A stretch of DNA of 64,000 nucleotides from a virus: positions 32,001 through 96,000 of the IMG/VR virus record IMGVR_UViG_3300023210_000015, one strand, 5' to 3'. This document shows, piece by piece, positions 3,374 through 56,608 of the stretch (position 1 is the stretch's first letter; each line of letters opens with the position of its first letter). A program made the translations under genes and the position numbers. The notes under the pieces were generated by a model, which was not told where the DNA came from, ran no database searches, and saw only the letters and a list, made by a program, of their open reading frames with translations.

Positions 3374-3389
3374 GTTCGATTAACAGTTT

Positions 3390-3435
3390 ATTAATTTAAA
3401 GGGCAGAATCGCAAGATTCTGCCCTTTAAATTAAT
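3390..3435. terminator. Perfect 21-bp inverted repeat with GCAA loop; probable bidirectional terminator
   Basis: ATTAATTTAAAGGGCAGAATC-GCAA-GATTCTGCCCTTTAAATTAAT directly after the HNH gene. Confidence 0.8.
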
Positions 3436-3454
3436 CTGTGCCGATTATATATCT

Positions 3455-31998: not shown

Positions 31999-32009
31999 GG
32001 AAATTATTC

Positions 32010-35000
32010 ATGATTATTAAACATGCTATTCGTTTAGTTGACGGAACTCTTGAGGCTCTGAATAAACCTGATTGGTATGAGTATAATATGAGTCGTGTTA
32101 AGTTTGCTTCTATCCAAAAAGATAAAAATGATCTTGGTGGATTTGATTTAGAATCAGCAGTAAAAGAAAGTCCAGACTTTCTTTTTGTTAAAGTTTTTGC
32201 AATTAAAGAAGATGAAGTTAACGATAATGGTGATGCATTTTCTAGTATGGAACTAAAAAAAGCGGCTAAAAGCTTTATCGGAGTTCCTATATTCACAAAT
32301 CATCAAAACGATGATGTAGAGAAAGCAAAAGGACAATGTGTACACGCATGGTATGACAAAAATGCAGAAGGTATTTGGATTATATCAAAAATAGATAGAG
32401 TTGCTTATCCTCAATTAGCTCGTGGAATAGAAGAAAAATATGTGGCAGGAACCAGCATGGGGGCCATGTCAGGTGACGCAGAAATTCTAATGTCTGATTA
32501 TTCTAAGAAAAGAATTTCTGATGTAGAAATAGGTGAAAAGGTTATTACACATTTAGGAAATTGCTGTAAGGTAGAAGAAGTACATAGTGATTTTATAGAT
32601 GAGCATTTGTTAAAATTTGATTTAGGCAATTTGGCCAATAGCCCATTGTTTACTCAAGACCATCCAATTTTTTCTATTAATGGAAAAACCATTCGAGAGC
32701 AGAAGAAAAATAATAAAGATTGGAGATCGTACCCATATGATTGTATTTTTAGAGAAGCAAAAGATTTGAAACTTGGTGATTACGTTCTTATACCATCTGC
32801 TCATAAAATGGTTAAAGAAAATGAATTCGATTTAGATTTTTATTATCTTCTAGGGGCATTTGCTGGTGATGGTTACATAAAATTTAACAGAGGAAAAATA
32901 GAAGGTTTTGGTTTCTGTTTTGGCAATCAAGATATTGCTTTAATAAGTAAAATTAAAAACATTTTAAGTCAATATACTGATTTTGATATCAAAGAAAAAA
33001 TTATTGAATCAAGAAATGGTGTTTACCTTTCTATATATGACAGAAAATTAGCTAATAAATTAAACACTTTAATTGGGCATGGAGCGTATACTAAACGAAT
33101 AAAAATTAAAGAATTTAGCGAAAATGCTATTAAGCAATTTATATCTGGCTATATAGATACAGACGGTTGTTCAGTTAAAGATTATACAGATTGTAAAAAT
33201 GATATTAGAGGTTTTCAAATTTCTAGTTGTAATAAAAACTTATTAGAAAGCGTTCGATCTATGCTCGTTTTGATTGGTTGTCCCGCCGGAATCATGACCA
33301 ATATTAGAAAACCCAATAAAAATAGTGTAGTGGATATCGAAACCATAGAACATACTTTATTTATAAACTTGTTTACTTCTTCTAGGTTTAAAAACTCCAT
33401 AAAGGTTGCCCAAAAATTAAATGGATATGAAGCTTCTTATTGTAATACTCCTAACATGATTTATCGAGTAGGAGATCAAAATTATATTGCGGCAAGAATT
33501 AAGGGCGTAATTTTAGTTGATAATTACGATAATGAAGTTTATGATTTGACTGTTGAAAAAGATGCTAGTTATATCGCTAATAATATAGCTGTTCACAATT
33601 GTTCTGTAGAATACTCTGTATGTTCGATATGCCACAACAAAGCTCATACTGCTGATGAGTATTGTGATCACATCAAAAACCACAAAACCAGAAAAGTAAG
33701 CGAAACTACAGAATGTCAATATCATAAAAGTCCAAACAAACCAATAGATGATTGTCCAGTTTGCGGCAAAAAACACAATGAATCTAAGAAATTATCACAC
33801 AAAGAAGCCCAGGTATTTGAGTGGAACTACGATGTAAAGTTTATCGAAGATTCTTTTGTTGTAAATCCTGCATGTCACACTTGCAATGTGAATGGGATTT
33901 TGAATCCTAATGGCATGAATAGAAAAGTGGCTACTATTAGAGATAGGATTGGAAAATTGGAAAAAGCAGCAAGTTCTGAAAATGATTGGTGTTTGGAAAA
34001 AACTGCTGGCGAAAGAGAACTGAAATACTTGACTGATGCAATGGATAAAATAGAAACCGTGGCTAAAAGCATGATGAGTCAAAAGAAACAGATTTCTATG
34101 GAGTATGTAAGTGATTTAGTTGATGTTTTAGCCAGTGTACAGGCTACTTTGGATGAATTGGAAGAAATGGGATATGCTCAACTTCCGTCTCCAAGTGTAC
34201 AGTCTGTTGAAGATGTCGAACTTCCGAAAGAAGCGGAAGAAGAGACAGAAATACAACCACAATCTCAAGCGGTTCAACCTCTAAATGCGGCCCCAACTAT
34301 TCCACCGGCAGGACAACCACCAGTACAACAGGTCGCTCCGGGAATTGAGAGCGAACAATTGGGAGATTTAGGGAGCGTAACTCGACCTAAGTTCTCTGAA
34401 ACAATCGAGATAAAAAAGAAGGATTTTCTGAGAGCTTCCAGTAGTATTATAGATAGACTTGATAAAATTCAGGAAAATTATACAAAATTAGAAAAAAACT
34501 CTGAAGCTAATCAAACAAAAATAGATAAGGAGTCTATTACTATGGCAAATAAAACAGGTAACGACCAAAATGAAAATGAAAAAGTAGCAGAACATGATCT
34601 AAATGTTATTACAGAAAAGCAGTTAGATGATGCCGAATTCACTGGTGAACGTACAAATGATTCTCCTAACGTCATCACTGAAAAGCAACTAGATAACCCT
34701 AAAGATGTCAATGTAACCACTTCTAAGACTCCACAGGAGCGTTCTGGTTCTTATGACGTTATCACAGAAAAGCAACTGGCTTCTATTAAGGAAGGTTATG
34801 TCGTGCGTTGGAATGATTTCCCCAACGTAATCACTGAAAAACAGTGGACAGACATGAGCAGATTGCTTGGTTCTGAACTTTCCAATGACCAAAGTAACCG
34901 TATTACTGAGAAACAGTTAACTGATTTTATGTCTAAGCATAAATACGTTAGTCCTACTGTTATCTATGAGAAACTTTTGAATGGTCAAGATGGAGAGTTG

Positions 35001-38000
35001 GCTCGTTGGGCTTCGGCGGATACCAATACTTTGGTTAAAATCGCTGAAAATGTCATTGCTGACGCGATTGCGTATTATGGCAAGACACCTGATGAGATCA
35101 GAAAAGCTGCTTCTACCATTGATAACAACGGTAATAATCAAGAAAAAGCGGCTTTCCTAGTCGTTATCAACTCTTTAGCTCATAAAGCAGATGCTCGTGA
35201 AAGCGAAAGAGTCCGTTACAACTATCTAAGTAAACTATCTTCTTCTGCGATTAATACTCCTTCGGCTGTTGATGCGTTGGTAATCGCTATGAGCGACAAT
35301 ATCGCTGATCAAGATGCCTTTGAATTAATTGAAGTTGTTAATCATGTAGCCAAATCTAAAGTGGCTATTAAGAGAATCGAAGCCATCGCCAAGTCTAAGT
35401 TGTCTGGCGAAGGCGAAGATAAGAAGGTTGTTAGCAAACAAGCAGCTATCGAAGAGGCAATTGCCAATTTGAATAAAGCTGATGATGGTAAATACCGTAT
35501 CGTTGCTAATTTCGGCAGCGAAAATGATAAAGACGTTGACCTCCATGTGAGTCCTGAGAACAAAACGGCGTTTACAAGTGCTGTTTATAAATTTGCCAAC
35601 GACGCAATCGCAGAAGAAGTTGGCACTGAAGTAGATACCGCACTTCTAGATGTTAATGTAGATAGCGGCAATAATGTTGTTGTTGCTACTCTGAAAGATG
35701 TTTCTGTTCTTACGGACGAAGAGAAAACGAGTTGGGATAAGGTGGCACAGAGTTTACAAAGTCTTGTTGAAGACCCCACTAAGCCATCTCGTAGTTTCCT
35801 TCCAGATGCTGAGACACCGCTAGCTAAAGAAGGACTAGATATCCTTCCGGAACCCGGTGAAGAAGAATTAGCAATTGGTGTTGACGATATAGACCTAGAG
35901 GGTGTAGACCTAGATTTGGAACTTGACGTAAGTGGTGCCCCTGGCAGTCTTAATGAGGAACTGTTCGAAGGTGAAGGAAAAGACATGCTCATGGGCGATG
36001 AAGAAGTTATTAAAGATATGTCCATGGGAACTGAAGACGAAATGGCACTTGACATTGAAGATGCTCGCGGCGGTCCAGTTTTTGCTTCTAGAAAAGACAA
36101 ACGTGATGGAATGGTTAAAGAAGCACAGCTACTTGGCGGCGAAATGGGCGGTCAAGGCGGTGCGGCTCAAGGTCCAGGTGCCGGTGCAGGACTGCCTCAA
36201 CCTCCTGCTGGCGGCGAAGCTCCATTGGAGAGTTTCGAAGGTTCTGACCTTGGTGGCGAATTTGAGGACGAGGGTGATTTACAACCTAAACCACCTGGCT
36301 CGATTTGTCCAGTTTGCAGTAGCGAGAATGTAGATATCATCAAGGGCGAGGGCAAATGTAATAACTGTACTTCTGAATTTAAGTACAAAGTTGCTATTGA
36401 GGTTACAAAGTGGGCTGATCTGCTTGAAGACCAAGATAATGGCGACGAGGAAGAAGATATTGAGGGCGAAGGCTTCGAAATCGAAGAAACACCTGAAGCT
36501 GCTGCCCCTCCTGCTGCTCCTGCCCCTCCTGCCGCTGCTCCTGCTCCTGCCCCAATGCCTGGTGCAGCAAGCACTGATAATGACAAAATACAAAAATTCG
36601 CAAGCGTTGACAGATTTGCGTCAATGACTGTTATCAAACCAGAAGCTATTAAGGTTGCTAAAGAAGCTGGCATTGAGCTAGGTACTGTTAGCCCTGTAAC
36701 TGGTTCTGCAAATACTATGAAATTGGAAGATGGAAGACGTTTCTGCTTGGATACGGGTACTCCTTATTCTGTAGAATATGCAGTTGATAAAAATGATCCT
36801 AAGAAAGTATATGCTCAGTGGTCTTGGAAGCCTCCAGTTGATGAAGGATGTTCGGAATGTGCGAAGAGTCATCAACAGTTCGTTGAGTCTCTAAGTACAA
36901 TGAACATTACAGAAGATCAGTTCGATTCTATGGGACTGAAAGAGAAGGGCGAAACTATTTTGAGCATGAAACAAGCTGGATTGCTTAAACAGATTAAAAC
37001 CGCTTCTGCGGAAACAAACAATATGATTAAGAAAGCAACAGTTACCTTGGGCGATAATTTCCCAATGGAATCTTGTGTTGAAAAACTAGCTCGTCGTTAT
37101 GGCGAAGACGCATTGGCATTAAGTGGCCCTTGTGAGGGTAAGCCTCTTGCTGATTGCATCTGTGCTTCGCTTAAACGTTCTGGCATGTACTCTAGTAGGT
37201 TGGCTAATAAGGTCGCCAGCATCTGGTCTGATAAAGAAGCTTCCACCGAATGCCTAGAAGATTATGTAAGAATGGGATTCGAGTTGAAGGAAGCCGCTGC
37301 TGTTTGCCAAGCTTTGAAGACCAAGTATGCGTCTCCTAAAGATGTATACGCACAGCAGTTAGGCGAAATCATCGAACAGGACGAAGAAGTTGATGTTCCT
37401 GTTGCTGATGATGAAGTCGGAGTAACAGACTTGGGTGATGAAGACCCATTTGATGGAGAAGAGGTCGAAGGTGCTGGCGATGTGACAATTACATTGCCTG
37501 GCGAGGTTGTAGAGCAGCTTGACGCGGCTCTAGATACTGCTTTGGGCGAAACTCCAGAAGAAGAGGCTCATCACGAAGAGGGTATTGATGTTACAGAAGA
37601 CGTAGGTGGACCGGCTGAAGAGGCCGTTGATGTTGCAGAAGGAGCAGAAGAGATGGTGCCAATGGAAGGCGGCGAAGTCGGCGAAAGCAAAGACATGGGT
37701 GGCGAAGTTGTTGAAATCGGCATCGAAGACGGTGGAGAAGAAGTTGGTGGCATCGGTGAAGTTGGCGAAGTTGTAGAAGACGAAGTTGGCGAAGTTGTAG
37801 AAGACGAGGGTGAAATTGGTGGCGATATCGGCGAAGATATCGCTGACGAAACAGCGGCCCCACAGGGGTTGGCTGAAGTAGTTGAAGAGGTTGTAGAAGC
37901 TGTAGAAGAAGCTGTAGAAAAGGTTAAAGAAATTATTGACGAAAAAAATGGTGTTGAAGAAGAAGGAATTTTAGAAGAAGATGAGAATAGTGAAGGAAAT

Positions 38001-39200
38001 GACCTCCCAGGAGTTTTGAATCCTGAAGAAACTGATGTTGAAGTTGAGAAGGAAGGGGAGGAAGAGGAAACCGAAATGGACTTTGAAGAAAAGGAAGCTG
38101 CCATCATGAATAGAAATTACATCGGCAGAACTGACGAAATTGCTCATCTTGATTTTTCCAAGTTAGCCAGTGTTATTAAGGGTGCTGACACAATCAAGAT
38201 TAAGCCTGCTCAAGACGTTGTTCCTTTCCAATATAGTGCTACAAGCACAATTGGCGATGAAGACGCTTTCACCGCTGACAAAGCAACTGCTCCCCATAAG
38301 GGTGATGCGGCTGCTATAGGAAATGAAGAACCTCCAAAGGCTGAAAAAGCAAGCGCTCCTACTTCCGACGCTCGTATGAGCGGAGAAAAAGATAATACTG
38401 ATCTAAAACCAGAACTTGATGATGTCGCTACTGGCGGCGAAGAGGGTGCTGGTACTTCAAAGGCCGCTTCTACAAAAGAAAGAATTTCCAATTTGGCTGA
38501 CGCAATCATCAAAGCTCAAGCTAATATCGAAGCTCAGACAAAAGTGAAAAGGAAATTCGTTCAAGACGATGAAGACACAAAGCCTTATTCTGGCGACAGT
38601 TTTATAGGCAATGAAAAAGAATCCATCGGTGATGTTCCTGCTGCCAAGCCTGCAATCGAGCAGAAGGTTCCAACCGATCAAGCCTTTATTGGCAATGAAA
38701 AAGAATCTATTGGCGAAAAGCCAAGTGATGCCGACATGCCTGACATCCCAACAAAGGATAGCAGAATTGACGGCGAAAAAGATAATGAAAAAATCGCTCC
38801 TGAAAAGGACGATGAAATGACGGGCGACGTTACAAATGGTGGCGTAAACGCGGAGTCTCACACTCATAGAAAAGAAGCAACTCGCGTTGCTGGTCGCATG
38901 CTTCAAGCTGGCAAGATTAGCATTGAAGACTTAGCAACCAAGATCGCAGAGTTAGAACGCTATGAGAGTGGAACACTCAATGATATTGAGAACTCCATCT
39001 TTGATGAAAAGGGACTTAACACGCAATCCGAGGGGTTAGAGCAAGCCCCTGTAGTATCCGAAGACAGCAATCAGATAAAGGTTGCCAATTCGCAAGACGA
39101 GTTGGCTAAACAATTAACTGGTATGTTTAGTCTTTCTAGGAGAAACGAAGCTGCTCAAGAGGATTCCGATATCCAATTAAGGAAAGATTATGGTAGGTAA
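32010..39200 (+). CDS. Prohead protease fused to a giant acidic scaffold; contains an intein
   Basis: NDNGDAF, PIFTNH, LARGI..GTSMG|CSV..CSIC, FIEDSFVVNPA; about 1500-aa acidic region; directly upstream of the decoration and MCP genes. Confidence 0.85.
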   Translation: MIIKHAIRLVDGTLEALNKPDWYEYNMSRVKFASIQKDKNDLGGFDLESAVKESPDFLFVKVFAIKEDEVNDNGDAFSSMELKKAAKSFIGVPIFTNHQNDDVEKAKGQCVHAWYDKNAEGIWIISKIDRVAYPQLARGIEEKYVAGTSMGAMSGDAEILMSDYSKKRISDVEIGEKVITHLGNCCKVEEVHSDFIDEHLLKFDLGNLANSPLFTQDHPIFSINGKTIREQKKNNKDWRSYPYDCIFREAKDLKLGDYVLIPSAHKMVKENEFDLDFYYLLGAFAGDGYIKFNRGKIEGFGFCFGNQDIALISKIKNILSQYTDFDIKEKIIESRNGVYLSIYDRKLANKLNTLIGHGAYTKRIKIKEFSENAIKQFISGYIDTDGCSVKDYTDCKNDIRGFQISSCNKNLLESVRSMLVLIGCPAGIMTNIRKPNKNSVVDIETIEHTLFINLFTSSRFKNSIKVAQKLNGYEASYCNTPNMIYRVGDQNYIAARIKGVILVDNYDNEVYDLTVEKDASYIANNIAVHNCSVEYSVCSICHNKAHTADEYCDHIKNHKTRKVSETTECQYHKSPNKPIDDCPVCGKKHNESKKLSHKEAQVFEWNYDVKFIEDSFVVNPACHTCNVNGILNPNGMNRKVATIRDRIGKLEKAASSENDWCLEKTAGERELKYLTDAMDKIETVAKSMMSQKKQISMEYVSDLVDVLASVQATLDELEEMGYAQLPSPSVQSVEDVELPKEAEEETEIQPQSQAVQPLNAAPTIPPAGQPPVQQVAPGIESEQLGDLGSVTRPKFSETIEIKKKDFLRASSSIIDRLDKIQENYTKLEKNSEANQTKIDKESITMANKTGNDQNENEKVAEHDLNVITEKQLDDAEFTGERTNDSPNVITEKQLDNPKDVNVTTSKTPQERSGSYDVITEKQLASIKEGYVVRWNDFPNVITEKQWTDMSRLLGSELSNDQSNRITEKQLTDFMSKHKYVSPTVIYEKLLNGQDGELARWASADTNTLVKIAENVIADAIAYYGKTPDEIRKAASTIDNNGNNQEKAAFLVVINSLAHKADARESERVRYNYLSKLSSSAINTPSAVDALVIAMSDNIADQDAFELIEVVNHVAKSKVAIKRIEAIAKSKLSGEGEDKKVVSKQAAIEEAIANLNKADDGKYRIVANFGSENDKDVDLHVSPENKTAFTSAVYKFANDAIAEEVGTEVDTALLDVNVDSGNNVVVATLKDVSVLTDEEKTSWDKVAQSLQSLVEDPTKPSRSFLPDAETPLAKEGLDILPEPGEEELAIGVDDIDLEGVDLDLELDVSGAPGSLNEELFEGEGKDMLMGDEEVIKDMSMGTEDEMALDIEDARGGPVFASRKDKRDGMVKEAQLLGGEMGGQGGAAQGPGAGAGLPQPPAGGEAPLESFEGSDLGGEFEDEGDLQPKPPGSICPVCSSENVDIIKGEGKCNNCTSEFKYKVAIEVTKWADLLEDQDNGDEEEDIEGEGFEIEETPEAAAPPAAPAPPAAAPAPAPMPGAASTDNDKIQKFASVDRFASMTVIKPEAIKVAKEAGIELGTVSPVTGSANTMKLEDGRRFCLDTGTPYSVEYAVDKNDPKKVYAQWSWKPPVDEGCSECAKSHQQFVESLSTMNITEDQFDSMGLKEKGETILSMKQAGLLKQIKTASAETNNMIKKATVTLGDNFPMESCVEKLARRYGEDALALSGPCEGKPLADCICASLKRSGMYSSRLANKVASIWSDKEASTECLEDYVRMGFELKEAAAVCQALKTKYASPKDVYAQQLGEIIEQDEEVDVPVADDEVGVTDLGDEDPFDGEEVEGAGDVTITLPGEVVEQLDAALDTALGETPEEEAHHEEGIDVTEDVGGPAEEAVDVAEGAEEMVPMEGGEVGESKDMGGEVVEIGIEDGGEEVGGIGEVGEVVEDEVGEVVEDEGEIGGDIGEDIADETAAPQGLAEVVEEVVEAVEEAVEKVKEIIDEKNGVEEEGILEEDENSEGNDLPGVLNPEETDVEVEKEGEEEETEMDFEEKEAAIMNRNYIGRTDEIAHLDFSKLASVIKGADTIKIKPAQDVVPFQYSATSTIGDEDAFTADKATAPHKGDAAAIGNEEPPKAEKASAPTSDARMSGEKDNTDLKPELDDVATGGEEGAGTSKAASTKERISNLADAIIKAQANIEAQTKVKRKFVQDDEDTKPYSGDSFIGNEKESIGDVPAAKPAIEQKVPTDQAFIGNEKESIGEKPSDADMPDIPTKDSRIDGEKDNEKIAPEKDDEMTGDVTNGGVNAESHTHRKEATRVAGRMLQAGKISIEDLATKIAELERYESGTLNDIENSIFDEKGLNTQSEGLEQAPVVSEDSNQIKVANSQDELAKQLTGMFSLSRRNEAAQEDSDIQLRKDYGR
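32463..33599 (+). mobile_element. Ala-initiated intein with LAGLIDADG endonuclease in the prohead protease
   Basis: A1 (AMSGDAEILM..RISDVEIGEKVITH), FTQDHP, LLGAFAGDG and FISGYIDTDG, VYDLTV..VHN followed by C+1. Confidence 0.88.
34542..39200 (+). CDS. Nested in-frame scaffold protein (internal start MANKTGND)
   Basis: TAAGGAG 10 nt before in-frame ATG 34542; internal AGAAGGATTTT..GTAGTATTATA promoter-like motif at 34417-34451. Confidence 0.65.
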   Translation: MANKTGNDQNENEKVAEHDLNVITEKQLDDAEFTGERTNDSPNVITEKQLDNPKDVNVTTSKTPQERSGSYDVITEKQLASIKEGYVVRWNDFPNVITEKQWTDMSRLLGSELSNDQSNRITEKQLTDFMSKHKYVSPTVIYEKLLNGQDGELARWASADTNTLVKIAENVIADAIAYYGKTPDEIRKAASTIDNNGNNQEKAAFLVVINSLAHKADARESERVRYNYLSKLSSSAINTPSAVDALVIAMSDNIADQDAFELIEVVNHVAKSKVAIKRIEAIAKSKLSGEGEDKKVVSKQAAIEEAIANLNKADDGKYRIVANFGSENDKDVDLHVSPENKTAFTSAVYKFANDAIAEEVGTEVDTALLDVNVDSGNNVVVATLKDVSVLTDEEKTSWDKVAQSLQSLVEDPTKPSRSFLPDAETPLAKEGLDILPEPGEEELAIGVDDIDLEGVDLDLELDVSGAPGSLNEELFEGEGKDMLMGDEEVIKDMSMGTEDEMALDIEDARGGPVFASRKDKRDGMVKEAQLLGGEMGGQGGAAQGPGAGAGLPQPPAGGEAPLESFEGSDLGGEFEDEGDLQPKPPGSICPVCSSENVDIIKGEGKCNNCTSEFKYKVAIEVTKWADLLEDQDNGDEEEDIEGEGFEIEETPEAAAPPAAPAPPAAAPAPAPMPGAASTDNDKIQKFASVDRFASMTVIKPEAIKVAKEAGIELGTVSPVTGSANTMKLEDGRRFCLDTGTPYSVEYAVDKNDPKKVYAQWSWKPPVDEGCSECAKSHQQFVESLSTMNITEDQFDSMGLKEKGETILSMKQAGLLKQIKTASAETNNMIKKATVTLGDNFPMESCVEKLARRYGEDALALSGPCEGKPLADCICASLKRSGMYSSRLANKVASIWSDKEASTECLEDYVRMGFELKEAAAVCQALKTKYASPKDVYAQQLGEIIEQDEEVDVPVADDEVGVTDLGDEDPFDGEEVEGAGDVTITLPGEVVEQLDAALDTALGETPEEEAHHEEGIDVTEDVGGPAEEAVDVAEGAEEMVPMEGGEVGESKDMGGEVVEIGIEDGGEEVGGIGEVGEVVEDEVGEVVEDEGEIGGDIGEDIADETAAPQGLAEVVEEVVEAVEEAVEKVKEIIDEKNGVEEEGILEEDENSEGNDLPGVLNPEETDVEVEKEGEEEETEMDFEEKEAAIMNRNYIGRTDEIAHLDFSKLASVIKGADTIKIKPAQDVVPFQYSATSTIGDEDAFTADKATAPHKGDAAAIGNEEPPKAEKASAPTSDARMSGEKDNTDLKPELDDVATGGEEGAGTSKAASTKERISNLADAIIKAQANIEAQTKVKRKFVQDDEDTKPYSGDSFIGNEKESIGDVPAAKPAIEQKVPTDQAFIGNEKESIGEKPSDADMPDIPTKDSRIDGEKDNEKIAPEKDDEMTGDVTNGGVNAESHTHRKEATRVAGRMLQAGKISIEDLATKIAELERYESGTLNDIENSIFDEKGLNTQSEGLEQAPVVSEDSNQIKVANSQDELAKQLTGMFSLSRRNEAAQEDSDIQLRKDYGR

Positions 39201-39848: not shown

Positions 39849-40718
39849 ATGATTACTAAGAATGGTTTAACAAACGAAGACAAGCTAGCAGTTATTGAAG
39901 CTGCTTTGAATACTGATGAAGGTCGTGTCGCCCTTGCGCAAGCAATTGTCGAGCCAATTCGCCGTTCTTTGGAATACCAGGCCGTTGGTCGTAAGCTTAT
40001 TATGGTCGACGAACTACCTCAAGGCGCTCTCGCTCGTTACGAGAGAGACGTTGCCGCAATCGCTCATGTGATTTCTCGTCGTGGTGCTGTTCCCGACCAG
40101 ATTCAAGAAGGCGAAGAGGTCTTGGTTCCAACGTTCGAAATCGCCGCTCACCCAACTGTACGTTTGAGTGAAATCAAAGCTCGTCGTTTCTACATTGTAG
40201 ATAGAGCGCAGATTAAGGCAAAAGAGGCTATTCAAAAAGAGGAAGATACCAATATTTTCAACGCATTGATCGCTGCTGCCACTAACCGTGGTACGCAAGT
40301 TGTTGTCAACGTTGGAGCTTTGAGTATCAACTCGTTGAACACGGCGTATCGTCTGATCGAACAGCATGACCTAGTTGCAACAAAGGTCGTTCTGCACGCG
40401 AATCAGTTTGCTACAATCCGTATCTTTGGCAAAGATTTCTACGATGAGGCAACTCAGCGTGAAATCATCACAACTGGCCTTTACGGTCACTTGTGGACTG
40501 CCGATATCCACGTTTCCAGTCGTATGGACACGGATACGGTCCTCGTTGTTGCCTCGCCTGACACAGTGGGTGCGTTCCCCATCCGTCAGGATATTACAGT
40601 TCTTCCCGCCGATGATCCCAAGAAATTGCGTCTTGGCTGGGTGATCTATGAAGAGGTTGGCATCGTTGTGTTGAACGATTACGCTCTAAGCATAATCGAA
40701 GTATCAACAGCTAGCTAA
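39849..40718 (+). CDS. Major capsid protein (HK97 fold)
   Basis: Position, strong RBS, strongly biased codon usage; VGRKL..DELPQG, PTFEI, IQKEED..IF, LGWVIYEEVG. Confidence 0.9.
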   Translation: MITKNGLTNEDKLAVIEAALNTDEGRVALAQAIVEPIRRSLEYQAVGRKLIMVDELPQGALARYERDVAAIAHVISRRGAVPDQIQEGEEVLVPTFEIAAHPTVRLSEIKARRFYIVDRAQIKAKEAIQKEEDTNIFNALIAAATNRGTQVVVNVGALSINSLNTAYRLIEQHDLVATKVVLHANQFATIRIFGKDFYDEATQREIITTGLYGHLWTADIHVSSRMDTDTVLVVASPDTVGAFPIRQDITVLPADDPKKLRLGWVIYEEVGIVVLNDYALSIIEVSTAS

Positions 40719-48263: not shown

Positions 48264-49040
48264 ATGTCAATTAATATATTCTCTATAGATAAAAAAGATA
48301 CCGTAAAAGCCGTTAAACGCCCTGTAAGCTATCAGCCTAGTGTGTTCGGAGCAGAAGACGTTTTTACGGGAAAAGGCGTCCAGGTGGCAATTGTGGGGAC
48401 TGGATTGCCCATATATCATGGGTTTAACACCATTTCAGAGTTTGAGGTCGCCATCGAAGAAGCAGACACCCCAAATGACGAATTAGGGGCTACTACAGCC
48501 ATCGCAGGGCTTATCGCAGCGAATGGGAAACAAGACTTAAAGGGTATTGCTCCATCTACGAAAATATTGTGCGTTAAGTCATTTTATAAAGATTATTCCA
48601 GTGATGTTTCAACTATTGCGGCATCTATTCTGTGGGCGATAGTCAAAAAGGTAGATATCCTTGTTCTGCCGTTTGAATTCGATACAAATAACCAATTGAT
48701 AAAAGATTCTCTTAAAAAAGCGTATAGAAATAACATAATCATTTTGACTCTTCCCACGAATAAAGCCAAAAGATGTCAAGAAGTGATATCTGTTGATACC
48801 CACTTTAAAAAGGGCTGTTTTGGAGAATTAAGGGGAGTTAAAAACATTTCAGTAAGTTGTTCTACTAGGCGAAAACTTTCTGCTTATGATGTAGAGGGTT
48901 TCGTAAGAATGGACAACAATATCGCTGCTTTGTCTTTAATCGCAGGATTAGTGTCCACATTGGTCGAAAAGAGCAAAAAAGAAGGATCAAGAGATGCTCG
49001 TCAATTCGTTATGAAAGAACTTCGAAATTTATCTAAATAA
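48264..49040 (+). CDS. Subtilisin (S8)-fold protein lacking the catalytic triad
   Basis: TGKGVQVAIVGTG, GATTAIAGLIAA..GIAP, AALSLIAGL. Confidence 0.75.
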   Translation: MSINIFSIDKKDTVKAVKRPVSYQPSVFGAEDVFTGKGVQVAIVGTGLPIYHGFNTISEFEVAIEEADTPNDELGATTAIAGLIAANGKQDLKGIAPSTKILCVKSFYKDYSSDVSTIAASILWAIVKKVDILVLPFEFDTNNQLIKDSLKKAYRNNIIILTLPTNKAKRCQEVISVDTHFKKGCFGELRGVKNISVSCSTRRKLSAYDVEGFVRMDNNIAALSLIAGLVSTLVEKSKKEGSRDARQFVMKELRNLSK

Positions 49041-49104
49041 ACGGCAAGGAAAATGCCATTATCTTTTGAATATTAAAAAGGTGGTTTATTAAAGGATTCA
49101 TTCT

Positions 49105-50106
49105 ATGGCAATAAGCGCAATAGCAGATTTTCAAGGAACATGGGTACAAGGTACATCTAGCTCTCTATTAATCCGAATCACGGATTTTGAAGGTTTTCCT
49201 ATCGATCCAGAAGATATTGTTGTATCTATAGACACGGCTGGCGGTACAGCAGTATTGACAAATGTAATTCCTGAAAAAGTGGAAATCGGTTTCTACGTTT
49301 ATGAGTGGGAAATTCCTGCAAATCAAATTGTTGGTCAATATGATGTAACATGGGAATTCACCACAGAAGATGGTCCACAAACTGAACTACAAGAGATTGT
49401 TGTTGTAGCTGATGGAGAAAATTCTGATATCTATAGTGGTAGACCTGGCGATTTATTGCGTAATCTAGAATATAGAATCGCATGTGCCCAAAACATACCA
49501 GTTTATTACGAACAGTGCAAACCTTCTCAAGACAAAAGAACCTACTACTGCACTTTTCCAAGATGGAATCAAACTCCTGGAATTCGCGTATATCGTAATA
49601 AGACGAATATGATGACTACAGATGATATGGGAGTTGACTATTCTAATGGTAGAATCGTGTTTAATGAAACACTGACTCAATATGACGAAGTGTATGTGGA
49701 CTATAATTTTAGATGGTTTACGGGAGAAGAATTGAATCAGTTTCTCAGAGATGCTGTGGGAGAATTAAATCTATATCCAGGTGTTACGGATTACAATCTC
49801 AATTCGTTCCCGGATAGATGGACAAAGGCTATCGTCCTGTCTGCTGCTGTAGATGCGTTAAGAAAAATCATGCTTTGTTTGAACTTCCAACAGCCTGCAC
49901 AGGTATTCGGCGGAACAGAAGCTGCCGGTGAAAAATTCTCTAATTTTGACACGCTAAAGAAAAACTATGAAGAAGAAGTAACAAAAATGCTAGAGCAGAA
50001 AAAGTATGGCCCATACCCAAGAACTAATGCTATCGTTGTGCCTGAATATACCCTACCTGGTGGACGCTCGCGTTGGTTTCGTTACCTCTTTTCCTCAGGT
50101 GTCTAA
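49105..50106 (+). CDS. Probable head-completion/neck protein with an Ig-like N-terminus
   Basis: GFYVYEW..GQYDVTW; VDYSNGRIVF..VYVDYNFRWFT.EEL..F; late-type promoter motif upstream. Confidence 0.55.
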   Translation: MAISAIADFQGTWVQGTSSSLLIRITDFEGFPIDPEDIVVSIDTAGGTAVLTNVIPEKVEIGFYVYEWEIPANQIVGQYDVTWEFTTEDGPQTELQEIVVVADGENSDIYSGRPGDLLRNLEYRIACAQNIPVYYEQCKPSQDKRTYYCTFPRWNQTPGIRVYRNKTNMMTTDDMGVDYSNGRIVFNETLTQYDEVYVDYNFRWFTGEELNQFLRDAVGELNLYPGVTDYNLNSFPDRWTKAIVLSAAVDALRKIMLCLNFQQPAQVFGGTEAAGEKFSNFDTLKKNYEEEVTKMLEQKKYGPYPRTNAIVVPEYTLPGGRSRWFRYLFSSGV

Positions 50107-50163
50107 AAATACATCGCTTATGGCTCGGAAACTGCCATTTCCATCATCTCATATAACTATCAC

Positions 50164-50191
50164 TAAAGTTTTTCTCTACTCGTACCGATAA
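50164..50191 (+). promoter_or_regulatory. sigma28-like promoter
   Basis: TAAAGTTT-N12-ACCGATAA. Confidence 0.5.
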
Positions 50192-50232
50192 CATATATAT
50201 ATAGGGACTATAATGTAATCAAAGGAGAAAAT

Positions 50233-52359
50233 ATGCCAGCGAAAGGACAAAAATTATCAGAACAAAGTGTCACTTTAATGAAGGACAATAAAAGAAAACG
50301 TTTATTAAATCAATATAAATGGGATTTAGTTAAACCTTATTTGGATATAAATCTTTCTTTATCTTCTAGGGGGCGTAAGCGTCATTTTATTACATTGAGA
50401 CAATTTAAAGAATACATTGAAAGCGGACTAAGTATAAGAGAAATACAAAAATTAACATCTAAAAATCTCGTTTCGTTTTATAGCATATTATGCCAAGGAA
50501 AAATTGACCTTAGTAAAAATGAATTTATACAACAATATGAAAGTGGAAAACCTCTCGAAGAAATAGCGGAAGATAATAAGATTAGCAAAGATTATATCGG
50601 GTATTTAAGACAGTTATATCGAATCAAATCTAAAGGGGCGAAGTTTATTCGCCGCAAAGAAACTGAAACACCGTTAACACAGAGACAAATTGAAATATTA
50701 TATGGCTCTATGCTAGGTGATGCCCAACGCTTAGGTGGAGCGGGTGTCCTTTTTCGACAAGGAGGGGAACAAAAAGATTACTTATTGTGGAAATATAAAG
50801 AATTTGAGAGCGTTGCTTCTCCTGATTCTTTAAAATCAACACATTCTATTGATTTTAGGTCGGAAACAGAAATAACATCTTGGTCATTTTATACTTTTGC
50901 TAATACGGATATCGAAAAATGTATTTCATCATTTTATCAAGTTGATCCTAATGATTCCTCGAAAAAAGTGAAAGAAGTTTCTCGTGACATTTTAAATCAA
51001 CTGACTCCATTATCGCTGTCCGTTTGGTTTATGGACGATGGGCAGACAGACTTCCAACACAGATCGATTGTGAAGGGGAACAATAGTAACCCGACTTGTA
51101 ATATATGTACTGATTCTTTTTCTAAAAAAAGTTGTGAAAATATAAAAGAATGGTTTAAAGAAAAGTTTGATATTGATGTCAATATCAAAGATCATCCTTT
51201 AAAATATAGAATGGGATATCGAATACGCATGAATGCCAAGAATACAAAGCAATTCATAGATTTAATTTCTCCACATATATTGCCCATGTTTCAGTATAAA
51301 ACTGATTATGAGTCATATAAAAATAAAAGATTAGAATTGCAAAAACAAGAAATAGATTATGGGAAAATCATGAAGTGTCCATTAGGTGTTGATTTCAAAA
51401 TGCTTACTGCGAAAGAACAAAGCGGATACATTGAAAACCTTGTTGTATCATTTTACAAAGGTGGTTTTAATGCTTTGATGGATGACCCAAAAACTATACA
51501 AAATCATATGAATGCTGTTTTAAAGGTGAACCCGAATAATTTAATTAAAGATGATTTTATTTCGTTTTCAAATGTTGGCAATCGATTTTTAATGGCTCAT
51601 TTTCCGAACTATTGGGATGCCAAGGCGAAGGGGAATAAGTCACCAAGAGAAATTTTTGAAAACAAGAAATATTTATCAGAAATTATACGTAAAATAATCA
51701 CAAATGGAACTTTTCCAAATAAAAAAGAAATATTAAAGTCGTTGAAACGATATCGTGGGAATAAGGCCGCCAGTGGATTTATGCCCTGTGTTGCCAAATC
51801 AATATATCATAAATATTGTGATAAAAATTCAAAAGTTATTGATTTTTGCGCTGGGTATGGAGGTAGATTGTTCGGTGCATTTGCTTGTGAAAAGGTGTTT
51901 TCTTATACTGGTATAGAAATTAATTTTAAAACATATTATGGTTTACACGATCTGTACAAAACATTGAGAGAAAAATCGGGTGAAAGCAAAGAAATGAGTC
52001 TTCTTAATCAGGATAGTATTATTGGTATGAAACAATTTAAAGATAATACTTTTGATTTCTGTTTTACTTCTCCTCCCTATTTTGATGCAGAAGAATATGA
52101 AGATAGTCAATTGCAAAGTTCTCAAAAGTATGATACATATGGAGAGTGGTTTGAAGAATATCTAATTAAATGCGTTCAAGAGGCAACGAGAATTTCTAGA
52201 AAAGTAGCAATTGATATTGCTAATACTGGTGGATACCAGATCGCTGACGATCTTGAAAGGTGGTTAAATAAAAATAATTATAATTTTTCACAGGACCAAA
52301 TTAGGATGCCAAGATATGATGGCAAATTTAGATTTGAACCAATTTTTGTCATCGAATAA
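50233..52359 (+). CDS. LAGLIDADG endonuclease fused to an amino-DNA-methyltransferase
   Basis: ILYGSMLGDA and LSVWFMDDG; C-terminal IDFCAGYGGR and FTSPPYF. Confidence 0.82.
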   Translation: MPAKGQKLSEQSVTLMKDNKRKRLLNQYKWDLVKPYLDINLSLSSRGRKRHFITLRQFKEYIESGLSIREIQKLTSKNLVSFYSILCQGKIDLSKNEFIQQYESGKPLEEIAEDNKISKDYIGYLRQLYRIKSKGAKFIRRKETETPLTQRQIEILYGSMLGDAQRLGGAGVLFRQGGEQKDYLLWKYKEFESVASPDSLKSTHSIDFRSETEITSWSFYTFANTDIEKCISSFYQVDPNDSSKKVKEVSRDILNQLTPLSLSVWFMDDGQTDFQHRSIVKGNNSNPTCNICTDSFSKKSCENIKEWFKEKFDIDVNIKDHPLKYRMGYRIRMNAKNTKQFIDLISPHILPMFQYKTDYESYKNKRLELQKQEIDYGKIMKCPLGVDFKMLTAKEQSGYIENLVVSFYKGGFNALMDDPKTIQNHMNAVLKVNPNNLIKDDFISFSNVGNRFLMAHFPNYWDAKAKGNKSPREIFENKKYLSEIIRKIITNGTFPNKKEILKSLKRYRGNKAASGFMPCVAKSIYHKYCDKNSKVIDFCAGYGGRLFGAFACEKVFSYTGIEINFKTYYGLHDLYKTLREKSGESKEMSLLNQDSIIGMKQFKDNTFDFCFTSPPYFDAEEYEDSQLQSSQKYDTYGEWFEEYLIKCVQEATRISRKVAIDIANTGGYQIADDLERWLNKNNYNFSQDQIRMPRYDGKFRFEPIFVIE

Positions 52360-52416
52360 TCTACTTGGTGAAACCTTATATGTTAGAATGTATGAAATAT
52401 AAGATTGGAGAATAAA

Positions 52417-52788
52417 ATGCCACTTATTATAACCGCATGGTGTACTAATTGTAAAAAAGCCGCTGCTGGTACGCTTCAATACGTACAATATTGGCTTGAA
52501 GAAGACGGCTCAAAAACACATCTTTCTCATCCGTTTGAAGGTTTTATTTTATATGATAAATGGAAGGAAGAATACAAAGAAAAAGGCATAACATTTAACG
52601 AAATGGAAAAAGAACGCTCAGGTTGTGCAACGGCATTTTGGGACACAGAAAACAAATGTTTAATTTATATTGATGAAGATCGAGAAGAAAAACCGGATAA
52701 CGCTGTTAATGTTTGTAGCGATGAAGCTGTCGTTATTTGTAAAGACTGCGGAGAAAAAACAAGTTTTGCTCCATTTGCAATGTCATAG
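52417..52788 (+). CDS. Hypothetical protein with two CxxC motifs
   Basis: CTNC and CKDC; GGAG RBS; TG-T-TAGAAT extended -10 at 52381-52389. Confidence 0.65.
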   Translation: MPLIITAWCTNCKKAAAGTLQYVQYWLEEDGSKTHLSHPFEGFILYDKWKEEYKEKGITFNEMEKERSGCATAFWDTENKCLIYIDEDREEKPDNAVNVCSDEAVVICKDCGEKTSFAPFAMS

Positions 52789-52797
52789 GATAATAAT

Positions 52798-53094
52798 ATG
52801 GAAATAGAAGAAGTCAGAAAACAAATATGCAAAGCGATGTTGGAAGATATCGATAAAGAGTGGAAAAACATTGAAGAAGAGTTTGAAGAAAGCTGTATGA
52901 AACACTTTTTATCATGGGTTCTGTTGTCGCATGGCGAACAAGTCAAAGAAGAGTGCAAAAAAATATTTGCAAAAAATATTAGTCCAAAATTGCCTTTACT
53001 TGAAGTTCTATCTCAAGCATTGGACACGGTATACGAAACAGATTTAGAAGAAGCGGCAGAGGCAGCGAGAATGCCTTTTGACGATAGAGAATAG
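52798..53094 (+). CDS. Small protein resembling MCP fragments
   Basis: EEVRKQICKAMLEDID versus MCP DEGRVALAQAIVEPIR; LSQALDTVYETDL versus LNTAYRLIEQHDL. Confidence 0.55.
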   Translation: MEIEEVRKQICKAMLEDIDKEWKNIEEEFEESCMKHFLSWVLLSHGEQVKEECKKIFAKNISPKLPLLEVLSQALDTVYETDLEEAAEAARMPFDDRE

Positions 53095-53104
53095 GGAGAA
53101 TAAA

Positions 53105-53503
53105 ATGGAATATGATTTTAGTTGGATGAAAGAAAAAAATCTACCTGATGGTAGTTATCGTGTAGACGGAGAATACCTAGAACCTAGAGAAATAGAAGCT
53201 AAAGCGATTTCAACGATGACTCAATATGTTGATGATGCTAACCGATATTATATGAGCAAAGTCGAAAATGATGGACCTGATGTGTGGTTATGGTGGTCGT
53301 ATTGTCGATCTTTAGACAGCGAAATTAATCCTAGATTATCTCACTTCATGGTTTGGGGAACAAACCTAAAAACTTTTGGCAAACATGATGTAATGCCGAA
53401 AAAAGCATTATTTGTATTCGCCGGTTATGATACCATGTTCAGAGACATGTGTACTAAGGAGACTCTCGATGAATGGGAAGAGAAAATCAAAGAAAATGAC
53501 TGA
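53105..53503 (+). CDS. Small protein resembling an internally deleted MCP
   Basis: LPDGS versus LPQGA; EAKAISTMTQYVD versus QIKAKEAIQKEED; W..MPKKALFVFAGYDT versus W..MDTDTVLVVASPDT. Confidence 0.6.
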   Translation: MEYDFSWMKEKNLPDGSYRVDGEYLEPREIEAKAISTMTQYVDDANRYYMSKVENDGPDVWLWWSYCRSLDSEINPRLSHFMVWGTNLKTFGKHDVMPKKALFVFAGYDTMFRDMCTKETLDEWEEKIKEND

Positions 53504-53789
53504 AGAAGAGAAAAACAAAAAAATACTTGAAATTTTAAGTACAGAAGAGGGAAGATCGGCACTAGCTAAAGCCATGTGGGAACCGGCTCGTTGTGGCGGC
53601 ATGGCATACGCCAATGACGGAAAAGCATTTATTCGATTTGGCGGTTATTGGTATGATTATGAAAAATGGAAACAACAGTATAATAATAACAGACATCAAA
53701 TACCAGTTGAATGGATGAAAGAGTATTGTGAAACAAATGAACACAAAAATAATTCTGAAGATTTTGTGGTAGGAGAAAATAGTGGATAA
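53496..53789 (+). CDS. Small protein carrying an MCP N-terminal helix copy
   Basis: MTEEEKNKKILEILSTEEGRSALAKAMWEPAR versus MCP LTNEDKLAVIEAALNTDEGRVALAQAIVEPIR. Confidence 0.8.
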   Translation: MTEEEKNKKILEILSTEEGRSALAKAMWEPARCGGMAYANDGKAFIRFGGYWYDYEKWKQQYNNNRHQIPVEWMKEYCETNEHKNNSEDFVVGENSG

Positions 53790-54015
53790 ATACAAAATAA
53801 AAGAACCCAATTGGTTTCAAGACAAGAATACCGGTGCGACAACATGCTTGGCTATGTCAGTAAATCCAGAAACCAACAGAATTTATGTGGTGGTTAGCAC
53901 CGAAATACCTCTTATGCGTTTAGAAGAAATCGATGAATCTGTAAAATTGGAAGTGAGTAAACAATTAGCAGAAACAGCAGAATTTATTATGCAAAATAAA
54001 AAAGATATTTATTAA
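53782..54015 (+). CDS. Small protein resembling the middle segment of the MCP
   Basis: VSTEIPLMRLEEI..V..EFI versus MCP PTFEIAAHPTVRLSEI..V..EAI. Confidence 0.55.
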   Translation: MDKYKIKEPNWFQDKNTGATTCLAMSVNPETNRIYVVVSTEIPLMRLEEIDESVKLEVSKQLAETAEFIMQNKKDIY

Positions 54016-54019
54016 AAAA

Positions 54020-54199
54020 GTGACACCAGAAGAATTTAAAATAGAGTGGCAGAAGATGATGGAAGAAAACGCGAAGTGGCGTAGGGAAACAATGGTTCCC
54101 ATATATCAAGCGCAAATAATTTCAGCTTGCATGGAGAGTGACATCGGAAGAAAAGCGTTATCACAAGCAGTAGCAAAAAGATTATTGGGAGAAAAATAG
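54020..54199 (+). CDS. 59-aa ORF with an MCP N-terminal helix copy (not in the ORF track)
   Basis: GTG start; IISACMESDIGRKALSQAV versus MCP VIEAALNTDEGRVALAQAI. Confidence 0.65.
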   Translation: MTPEEFKIEWQKMMEENAKWRRETMVPIYQAQIISACMESDIGRKALSQAVAKRLLGEK

Positions 54200-54308
54200 T
54201 GTATAAATTCAAAAGGAAATATATCTTTCTTCTATAATATAAAGACATGGAAACTTATAACATTCACAACCTTGATTCCCTCTAGTTATTAACTAGAGGA
54301 GAATTAAT

Positions 54309-54683
54309 ATGAGCGGTTATTTCAGACACCCTAAAACCCTTAACGAGAAAAAAGCAAATCAAGATTGGCCAGTGCGCGGAAGAAGAATGTCCAAAAGGCT
54401 TCCACATTTTTGGGACGATATTTGGAACCGCACCACCCGCTGCTGGAAGAAAACTCGAAAAACACAGTATAGAGTCAAATCTGTCAAACCCAAAAAAGAT
54501 AGCACCAGATACGGCAAATCGATGGCAAAACGAGATCATTTTTACAAAGAACACAAAGCGTGTCGCTATGAAAGACGCAGATGCACATATTGCATTAAAC
54601 ATGGTTGTTGGGACGAATATGACAAATATATTGAACGTCATTATAGAAGGATTCTGGCAGAGCAACCAAACAATTATTTCTAA
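54309..54683 (+). CDS. Basic hypothetical protein
   Basis: GAGGAG RBS; YFRHPKT..LPHFWDD..CWK..RKTQY. Confidence 0.7.
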   Translation: MSGYFRHPKTLNEKKANQDWPVRGRRMSKRLPHFWDDIWNRTTRCWKKTRKTQYRVKSVKPKKDSTRYGKSMAKRDHFYKEHKACRYERRRCTYCIKHGCWDEYDKYIERHYRRILAEQPNNYF

Positions 54684-54717
54684 AGGAATTCGTTTAACTA
54701 TTTTCGAATAATTAAGT

Positions 54718-55524
54718 ATGATAACTTTAGATGACAAAACAATTTATATCGTATCTGATTTACACATGGGAAACGGATCAAAAGCTGACAGTTTCGCACC
54801 ATATGCAAAAATCTTTAATGATTTTTTAGACATGGTAGACCAAGACCCTAATGGAATCCTTATTATCGCAGGTGATGTCTTCGAGTTATGGCAATTCAGT
54901 AGCGGAAATATATTCAAAACATATTTTGATTTGATCAAACGACTTATTAATATGAATACGATTTTCATCATTGGCAATCATGACATAGATTTGTTTGGGT
55001 TTATTGATTCTCCATTAAAATTATCTTTTTTAGATCAATTAAAGAATGATGTTCAGATTGAACGTGGTGGACAAAAAATAAAAATAATTCATGGTCATGA
55101 GTTTGATATCTTCAACAATCCTTCTAAATCACTGTTCATGGGAAGAATAGTCACATTGCTTGTTGGAGAATATGAGAAGAACAATCAAGACTTTGACAAA
55201 TGGGCAGAAAAGTATTTAGAGCCGTTCTTTAGGAAACTTTCTTTGTTCGCTATGAATTTTTATAGTAGATTTTTTGGGAAAAGTCAGTCACAGGTCGAAG
55301 GAAAATTGTCAAAGATACTGGAGAAATATCACAAAAATAATCCTAATGAATTTATCGTGTCTGGTCATACTCATTATCCCGGATGGTTTGGTGATTGGTA
55401 TGTAAATACTGGTTCATGGGAGAGGAAAGATAATCCTCACTACGTTAAGATTACACCAGATGGGTCTGTAACGCTCTATAAATACCCAGAAAATACGATA
55501 GTGACTAAACAGTACAACTCTTAG
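54718..55524 (+). CDS. Calcineurin-like metallophosphoesterase (LpxH-like)
   Basis: SDLH, AGDVFELW, GNHD, HGH, GHTH, NTGSW. Confidence 0.9.
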   Translation: MITLDDKTIYIVSDLHMGNGSKADSFAPYAKIFNDFLDMVDQDPNGILIIAGDVFELWQFSSGNIFKTYFDLIKRLINMNTIFIIGNHDIDLFGFIDSPLKLSFLDQLKNDVQIERGGQKIKIIHGHEFDIFNNPSKSLFMGRIVTLLVGEYEKNNQDFDKWAEKYLEPFFRKLSLFAMNFYSRFFGKSQSQVEGKLSKILEKYHKNNPNEFIVSGHTHYPGWFGDWYVNTGSWERKDNPHYVKITPDGSVTLYKYPENTIVTKQYNS

Positions 55525-56608
55525 GCAAAAGGTCTTCGATCCTCTTGCCCTTTTCTGCCAAAAACTGGCTGAATGTCTTTTTCTTGAAGTCTTTAGCCAT
55601 TAACCAATAATATCTGAATTCTCTAGCTAAGTCTGCTGTCCATTTCTCAGATACAAATATTTTATTATCTAGAGCATTTAATGGTTTAAATATCTGTGGA
55701 TATGGTCTAACGCCTAATTCTCTAACTTCTGTTGCTCTATACATTGCTTCATCAAAATCATCTTGGAAATTAAATAACACAAATACCATAAATGCGTACT
55801 TGGGAACACCTAATTTTCTCAATTTCTTAATAGCATCTTGTAAATACCCGTCTTCTGTCATATTATCGAACGCAAGACGCAATCCATTCTCTTGCCATCT
55901 AATCTTAGACAGCATCTCTATCTTTTCATCGTCCAGCAAACGAACATCAAATCCATTGTGGAAGCACGTAATTAGGCGTTTTTCGGCCAAAAAGTTGACA
56001 ACCTCTTTGAAGTGTTCTTTTGGCATCGCTGTTAAGTTGTTGTCATAAACCATAATGTGCTTTTTATCATAATCAATTAGGTCTTTCCAATTTTCTATAA
56101 TTTCAGTTCTTGGCTCTAACCTCTTAACTGCACAGAATTTACAGCTTCTTGGGCATCCTCTTGTAGTGAATATCATACTAAAATTTTCCCATCTTTGTAT
56201 TTTAGGAGAGTATTTGATGAATTCCTCATAAAGAGAGTAATCAGGTTTTATCTTATCTAGATTGCTAGAAAAGCCTATAAATGGTTTTATTCCTGTTTTT
56301 TCTTCTATATAATCTGGCATAAGAGTAGCAAAAATCCCACCAACCAGTATTTTAGCATCTTGAAAGTTGTCTTTATAATAATTAATACATTCAATGGTTC
56401 TAGCTGATTGGTAAGTAAATAACGTGGATATGTAGATAATATCTGGTTTATACAGATCATCTCCAAACATATCATTGCTAGTGGAGGGTAATAACCCTTT
56501 GACGTAATGAACTTGATGGCCTTTTTTCTTATGTCTAGCCGATATTTTCATTAGAGCCAGATTTGGATATGTCAACGGAATGTTCGGTTCTACTAATAAA
56601 ATGTTCAT
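55505..56608 (-). CDS. Radical SAM protein with a B12-binding-like N-terminus
   Basis: YPNLALMKIS, VGGIFATL, TTRGCPRSCKFC. Confidence 0.88.
   Translation of the reverse strand: MNILLVEPNIPLTYPNLALMKISARHKKKGHQVHYVKGLLPSTSNDMFGDDLYKPDIIYISTLFTYQSARTIECINYYKDNFQDAKILVGGIFATLMPDYIEEKTGIKPFIGFSSNLDKIKPDYSLYEEFIKYSPKIQRWENFSMIFTTRGCPRSCKFCAVKRLEPRTEIIENWKDLIDYDKKHIMVYDNNLTAMPKEHFKEVVNFLAEKRLITCFHNGFDVRLLDDEKIEMLSKIRWQENGLRLAFDNMTEDGYLQDAIKKLRKLGVPKYAFMVFVLFNFQDDFDEAMYRATEVRELGVRPYPQIFKPLNALDNKIFVSEKWTADLAREFRYYWLMAKDFKKKTFSQFLAEKGKRIEDLLPKSCTV

Follow-up and report, generated by a model that had tools for sequence, protein, structure and literature searches.

Candidate mimics of the capsid N-terminal arm encoded by small genes of a phage-G-like megaphage

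The internal proteins of phage T4 are small, fast-evolving and sporadic accessory proteins, in which a conserved N-terminal capsid-targeting peptide stands ahead of variable bodies; this peptide, about 10 residues long and not of capsid-protein origin, is cleaved off by the prohead protease. Full-length capsid paralogues of the T4 gp24 type are complete HK97 folds located at the vertices. To our knowledge, capsid-derived accessory proteins are known solely as full-length paralogues of this kind or as satellite-encoded homologues. SaPIbov5 Ccm is a capsid-protein homologue that redirects capsid assembly of the helper phage (PMC8569155). In procapsids of 80alpha, the N-terminal arm (N-arm) of the capsid protein contains a helix to which the C-terminal helix of the scaffolding protein binds, and a satellite protein competes at this site (PMC5644958). 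The present study deals with a 64,000-nucleotide stretch of viral DNA (hereafter the window), namely positions 32,001 to 96,000 of the IMG/VR record IMGVR_UViG_3300023210_000015, which belongs to a virus contig of 109,228 bases. Alignments show that two small genes of the window, 53496-53789 and 54020-54199, each carry an apparent copy of the N-arm of the phage's own major capsid protein (MCP).

The capsid protein and five small open reading frames

The window had previously been read from its letters without database searches. This sequence-only reading placed the MCP at 39849-40718 and described five consecutive open reading frames (ORFs) at 52798-54199 as a tandem array of miniature proteins derived from it. 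The ORFs, named here by their first position, and the segments discussed below are as follows.

39849..40718 (+): MCP, HK97-fold, phage G type, 289 amino acids (aa); phrog_2522, gp27, 6WKK
39861..39998 (+): MCP residues 5-50, covering the helix-turn-helix of the N-arm and the beginning of the first E-loop strand; the part of the MCP that recurs in the small ORFs
52798..53094 (+): 98-aa ORFan, coding-like; relation to the MCP not demonstrable
53105..53503 (+): 132-aa ORFan; relation to the MCP likewise not demonstrable
53496..53789 (+): 97-aa protein, member of an unnamed family named here after its R-C-G-G signature
53496..53630 (+): N-arm-like module of ORF 53496, residues 1-45 (16/32 identity; hhalign)
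53589..53600 (+): R-C-G-G signature, where the MCP has R-R-S
53782..54015 (+): 77-aa ORFan; relation to the MCP likewise not demonstrable
54020..54199 (+): 59-aa protein that begins with GTG, 5 nt past the previous stop codon, and lacks a clear ribosome-binding site
54104..54178 (+): C-terminal helix of ORF 54020 (residues 29-53), like MCP residues 11-35

The earlier identification of the MCP was correct. The protein matched phrog_2522 ("major head protein") with E 2.9e-62 and showed 53% identity with gp27 of Bacillus phage G, and its family profile matched PDB 6WKK, the solved structure of gp27, with E 1e-140. MCPs of this type comprise more than 1000 metagenomic proteins and occur in 360 IMG/VR contigs, some of which are 450-550 kb long; from the MCP type and its carriers, the source phage appears to be an uncultured phage-G-like megaphage, a relative of Bacillus phage G. 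In an alignment of 27 metagenomic MCPs and phage G gp27 (A1, 28 members), the N-arm core (residues about 19-49) was invariant or nearly so across all members, phage G included. The AlphaFold2 (AF2) model of the MCP was poor overall, with helices at 9-20 and 23-33.

All five small ORFs were present where the earlier reading had located them and were intact, and their codon usage was gene-like solely in their own frame, with scores of 0.29-0.46 (true-gene windows, 0.30 +/- 0.13; off-frames, -0.68). ORF 54020, which scored 0.29, is also called by public gene callers.

The shuffled-control and profile checks that the sequence-only reading had proposed were run for all five ORFs. In Smith-Waterman alignments of each ORF against the MCP with 500 shuffles, ORF 53496 reached a z score of 11.8 and ORF 54020 one of 5.4, whereas ORFs 52798, 53105 and 53782 gave 0.05, 2.0 and -0.3, and two flanking control ORFs scored at chance level. 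Alignment by hhalign against the MCP family profile (A1) gave 95% probability for ORF 53496 (E 2.4e-8, 46 columns, MCP residues 5-50) and 56% for ORF 54020 (E 1.1e-4, 25 columns); ORFs 52798, 53105 and 53782 had no significant profile match (0.8%, 0.1% and 0.4%) and no capsid match in PHROG and Pfam scans. When a hidden Markov model (HMM) of the MCP N-terminus was run on all 1643 six-frame ORFs of the contig, the MCP ranked first, followed by ORF 53496 (E 7e-10) and ORF 54020 (E 1.6e-3), and then by noise from E 2 upwards. The match of ORF 53496 to the MCP is therefore clear and that of ORF 54020 is of moderate strength.

In ORF 53496, 16 of 32 residues are identical to MCP residues 7-38, and the remainder of the protein beyond the module resembles the MCP at chance level only (z -0.1); ORF 54020 shares 9 of 21 residues with the MCP. 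Neither protein appears to be a whole HK97-fold capsid protein, since the aligned parts are MCP residues 5-50 or 11-35 alone. In a tblastn search of the complete phage G genome, the top match of both ORFs was the N-terminus of gp27, with E 5.5e-4 for ORF 53496 but E 0.22 for ORF 54020.

Accordingly, the claim that all five ORFs align to the MCP and derive from it was upheld for ORFs 53496 and 54020 and failed for the other three, which behaved as chance in every test. The helix proposed in ORF 52798 reached only E 2.2 with the N-arm HMM, and a gap-tolerant chaining test for collinear blocks against the MCP gave z 0.7, 0.0 and 0.0 for ORFs 52798, 53105 and 53782, the second of which had been thought to keep three such blocks. 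Among themselves, the five ORFs showed pairwise z scores of at most 2.6, that is, no detectable mutual relation, and they are not paralogues. Because three ORFs were unconfirmed and the five are mutually unrelated, the N-terminal helix recurs twice rather than three times, and the tandem array of five reduces to two copies. ORF 52798 was also considered as a weaker third copy, as it aligns best, though below threshold, to the same helix, but the E values were 0.07 to 2.3 and the candidate was rejected as unproven; adding both true copies to the N-arm model did not raise it (E 2.3). ORFs 52798, 53105 and 53782 are best explained as unrelated small accessory genes. The protein atlas offered no usable lead for ORF 53496 or ORF 53105, promoter and terminator scans remained at background level, and no Rfam matches were found in 49000-56000.

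The R-C-G-G family and its distribution

An exhaustive HMMER search of 1.84 billion representatives retrieved 22 further relatives of ORF 53496 (56-173 aa, E at most 1e-3), with 34-59% identity over the matched stretches. In the resulting alignment (A2, 23 sequences), an N-arm-like helix pair is followed by M-x-x-P-x-R-C-G-G-x-x-Y, then by a G-K strand and a G-G turn or short beta hairpin. Within the signature, the C and the second G are invariant, and conservation is 90% or higher at the R, at the first G and at the Y that comes after it; every conserved position is present in ORF 53496. Profile-profile comparison aligned A2 with the MCP family over 48 columns (MCP residues 3-51; 97% probability, E 1.2e-10), and the positions kept in A2 (T, G-R, L-A, M, P, R, Y and G) are those invariant in the MCPs of both clades. 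Two family members matched the PHROG major head protein model, which was the sole library match for the family; no Pfam or PHROG family covers the R-C-G-G proteins, and Pfam scans of the fused members showed no known domain. On these conserved residues, ORF 53496 can be assigned to a real, unnamed small-protein family of megaphages. The picture that emerges is of a real new family of putative capsid N-arm mimics in megaphages, narrower within the window than the sequence-only reading had claimed and broader across phages.

Concerning the gene itself, ATG 53496, which overlaps the stop codon of the gene before it, equals the start used in the majority of the family; an alternative ATG at 53469, behind a strong AAGGAG ribosome-binding site, would give 106 aa and overlap the end of ORF 53105 by 35 nt. 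The AF2 model of ORF 53496, built with A2, had a pLDDT of 85 and placed helices at 12-23 and 26-35, along with three short strands and another two helices; the pair at 12-23 and 26-35 is also seen in the MCP model, at 9-20 and 23-33. With this model, Foldseek against the PDB gave no match with E < 0.5, and VIA-align wide gave nothing reliable (Z at most 2.9). In BFVD, the row of highest probability was phage G gp27, with 2.8 A over 39 columns, which was not significant (E 0.57). No solved or predicted fold matching the body of the model was thus found in the PDB, VIA-align wide or BFVD.

ORF 54020 lacks the R-C-G-G signature and ends directly after the helix, without P-x-R-C-G-G. Its hhalign comparison with A2 gave E 0.024 and 2% probability, and it appears to be a separate helix-only copy, nearer to the MCP than to the R-C-G-G family. 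A relation of its N-terminus to a rearranged C-terminal motif of the family was considered and found unsupported.

A degenerate DNA pattern for the signature retrieved 18 loci, 4 on IMG/VR contigs (46-536 kb) and 14 on metagenome contigs, and all 18 contigs encode family members; the phage-G-type MCP is also encoded in 4 of the 4 IMG/VR contigs with a family member. The module stands alone or fused, at an N-terminal, internal or extreme C-terminal position, in proteins of 56 to 389 aa. Phage GenBank records yielded no DNA match, and no protein match for ORF 53496 or ORF 54020; IMG/VR back-translation searches with ORF 53496 and a neighbouring phosphoesterase found nothing, and a word-indexed protein search with ORF 53496 returned solely near-identical variants (at least 99% identity). 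Among the 80 best IMG/VR contigs that carry this MCP type, the 50 largest were scanned with the A2 profile, and only two extra ORFs were found beyond the MCP itself, plus short exon-1 ORFs of split MCP genes. Phage G gp542, which had tblastn E 0.009, was examined as a distant relative and rejected, as the family profile gave it a probability of 0.8%.

Further MCP fragments were seen in genomes that encode family members. A 90-aa protein (L037:1411-1683, +) consists of a hydrophobic leader and MCP residues 9-68 (E 5e-8), another ORF ends in MCP residues 33-58 (E 3.6e-5), and a further copy consists of the helix only (E 2e-3). On a 497 kb IMG/VR contig, the C-terminal 80 residues of a 370-aa protein (L031:3072-4184, +) correspond to MCP residues 155-233 in the A domain (hhalign 85%, E 6e-6). 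This 370-aa protein lies 2 kb downstream of the R-C-G-G protein of the same phage, the same ORF is present in L063, and it represents a second kind of capsid-fragment fusion.

Several side observations concern the same proteins. Hydrophobic leaders of the R-R-x-F type, by eye candidates for twin-arginine signals or membrane anchors, stand at the start of N-arm proteins at L037:1411-1683 (+), L038, L031:985-1494 (+) and P0138. In relative G014, a 270-aa protein (L177:1696-2508, -) starts with a K-Q-A type leader and has an N-arm-like segment ending in the MCP's own P-x-R-R-S-L-E-Y. In relative G020, two adjacent small ORFs (L176:2922-3140, -, and 3142-3486, -) have the motif N-R-F-E-I-L-D-L-E in common, which forms the extreme C-terminus of one (2922-3140) and lies close to that end in the other (3142-3486); the former is an N-arm copy in which R-G-G-Y replaces R-C-G-G.

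Possible origin and function of the N-arm module

ORF 53496 and the MCP use different codons for 15 of their 16 shared residues, and their nucleotide identity is 50%, so that the likeness persists at the protein level, and ORF 53496 does not appear to be a recent DNA copy of the MCP. Across four small-protein/MCP pairs, identical codons were found for 1/15, 8/21, 5/13 and 3/17 of the identical residues, and these low counts indicate that the likeness to the resident MCP does not come from recent gene conversion. The last 26 residues of the module were compared with each MCP in five phages for which both proteins are known. The module of G002 shared 20 of 26 residues with its own MCP, compared with 17-18 for MCPs of the same clade and 9-11 for those of the other clade, and that of G020 shared 17 with its own MCP versus 10-11 for the other clade. 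The corresponding values were 13-14 versus 9-11 for ORF 53496 and 13 versus 8-10 for G003, and the module of G001 did not discriminate between the MCP clades. The module is thus apparently most like the MCP type of its own clade in 4 of 5 phages, and this tracking, with four informative pairs, is suggestive but not proven. Together with the 22 relatives that keep the conserved residues, these data favour the earlier proposal of a functional mimic over a decayed pseudogene for ORF 53496.

A possible source of the module is provided by the MCP genes of relatives, in several of which the MCP frame resumes at about residue 33 or 55 after an insertion. In an IMG/VR relative (L152:1501-3113), exon 1 is a 54-aa ORF ending after residue 54, followed by a 305-aa LAGLIDADG ORF and then by exon 2; split MCP genes are also found on contigs L117, L121, L122, L133, L136 and L144, and one insertion in another relative matches a group I intron below threshold (31.8 bits, E 3.5e-5). 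Since exon 1 ends after residue 54, it equals the module kept in the small proteins (MCP residues 3-51). The window contains an endonuclease-like gene of its own.

50233..52359 (+): LAGLIDADG homing-endonuclease-like protein, 708 aa (PF03161, E 5e-27)

One small gene separates it from the downstream five-ORF cluster, and its product shows 26% identity over 282 aa (E 1e-9) with the endonuclease that splits the MCP gene of a relative. We infer that the free-standing genes may have originated from exon-1 pieces, through capture of exon 1 from a capsid gene split by a homing-endonuclease insertion.

As regards function, the N-arm is the scaffold-binding site in other HK97-fold phages, and a free N-arm would therefore be expected to bind such a scaffold-type partner or to occupy the groove of an adjacent capsid subunit. 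If the module mimics the capsid N-arm in this way, the small protein and any sequence fused to it would be loaded or docked on the procapsid; alternatively, the module might titrate an N-arm-binding factor. A docking or targeting tag would best fit the sporadic occurrence, the fast-diverging body, the variable fusions and the conserved module, with a decoy of a capsid sensor as the second choice. Taken as a whole, the best explanation is that of a capsid N-arm mimic of exon-1 origin, with the other three ORFs as unrelated accessory genes, to which we assign a probability of about 0.5. The fuller statement, that the mimics are exon-1 derived, are under protein-level selection and serve as a cargo docking tag or an N-arm decoy, is put forward tentatively and at less than even odds; either function would make them a new class of capsid-mimic accessory proteins.

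Several observations weigh against this explanation. Pure mimicry explains neither the invariant Cys-Gly-Gly, for which the MCP offers no equivalent, nor the varied fusions of the module in other phages, including those with signal-like or membrane-like leaders; in some members, the leader resembles by eye a twin-arginine signal or a membrane segment, which is a poor fit to docking on a cytoplasmic procapsid. A natural variant of ORF 53496 has Arg replaced by Ile in the E-G-R motif, and ORF 54020 has moderate significance only and no homologues of its own. The R-C-G-G family was not found in phage G by whole-genome tblastn or with the family profile, and an extra copy is present in one of five near-complete related genomes and absent from the other four, which have the same MCP type. 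Because of these absences, the family is not a core assembly factor.

The same sporadic, accessory-like character leaves some probability with the two functions suggested by the sequence-only reading, an immune decoy and a dominant-negative poison. As a decoy, the small proteins, made early or in excess, would occupy a host defence sensor of the invariant N-arm without triggering it. The invariance of the motif across the clade would make it a good sensor target, the family is as sporadic as anti-defence genes and sits among small accessory ORFs, the mimicry is kept at the protein level, and capsid proteins are reportedly direct triggers of defence in the case of CapRel-SJ46. However, an invariant C-G-G and a conserved beta hairpin are not needed for such mimicry, fusion to large unrelated regions and leader-like N-termini would be unexpected, and we know of no sensor of this capsid N-arm region; we consider the decoy rather unlikely. 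A protein that inhibits the capsid assembly of co-infecting related phages could act through a free N-arm and first E-loop strand capping a subunit interface, and a sporadic accessory gene would suit this role. Nevertheless, the module matches the resident MCP best, and, as the N-arm motif hardly varies throughout the clade, the inhibitor would also strike the phage's own capsid, which renders this role highly improbable.

The small proteins might instead be neutral or nearly neutral relics, in which endonuclease or intron mobility copied exon 1 and the fragments persist without a function tied to the capsid. The endonuclease-bearing insertions that interrupt MCP genes of relatives after about residue 33 or 54, the LAGLIDADG gene just upstream of the cluster, and the other MCP pieces in megaphages (residues 9-68, 33-58 and the A-domain piece) all agree with this. 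Relics would hardly be expected to retain capsid-like residues though their codons mostly differ, to form a family with invariant positions among phages whose members are only 26-54% identical, or to remain as intact ORFs throughout, and we judge this explanation distinctly improbable. Finally, the segments are short and ORF 54020 alone is borderline in phage G, so that a chance resemblance of amphipathic helices must be weighed. The z score and the profile E values of 1e-8 to 1e-10 already disfavour it for ORF 53496, the two ORFs are the sole matches besides the MCP among the 1643 ORFs, and both select the same MCP segment in a second genome, that of phage G; its likelihood is close to negligible.

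Other features of the window lie outside this argument. Upstream of the MCP gene are a gene for a cement/decoration-like protein and a larger gene.

32010-39200 (+): 2396-aa protease/scaffold-like protein, upstream of the decoration and capsid genes

The N-terminus of the 2396-aa protein shows a weak likeness to the head maturation protease phrog_18299 (E 4.9e-5), and its sequence is broken by an intein whose LAGLIDADG domain matches PF14528 (E 2.9e-11); Intein_splicing scored 34.7 bits, just below the cut-off. Downstream of the cluster, a near-perfect inverted repeat with C-C-T-C-T-A-G-T-T arms (54275-54296) stands just before gene 54309 and overlaps its ribosome-binding site.

Significance and comparison with known systems

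A conserved family that keeps the N-arm only and tracks the resident MCP would point to an interface that is read independently of the shell by the phage or the host, the candidates being those of the N-arm with the scaffold, with the neighbouring subunit or with a sensor. It would also offer an evolutionary route by which exon 1 of an intron-split structural gene becomes a free-standing gene, and it would make assembly or defence testable on a small scale in megaphages, to which there is hardly any other access.

Among the known systems, SaPIbov5 Ccm is similar in being an accessory protein from an HK97-fold capsid protein, and the proteins described here would likewise be expected to act through capsid interfaces. 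Ccm is, however, a full-length, satellite-encoded capsid homologue that co-assembles, whereas the present proteins keep about 25-50 N-terminal residues, are encoded in the phage's own genome and have no detectable HK97 body. The duplication of capsid-gene sequence within one phage genome is shared with T4 gp24, although fragments are found here. The T4 internal proteins are comparable in being small, fast-evolving and sporadic and in combining a conserved peptide with variable bodies; the module described here is not always N-terminal. The interface concerned, that between the N-arm helix and its binding helix, would be the one for which the 80alpha scaffolding protein and SaPI1 CpmB compete (PMC5644958), with the difference that CpmB imitates the scaffold side of this interface, whereas the small proteins of the megaphages would imitate the capsid side.

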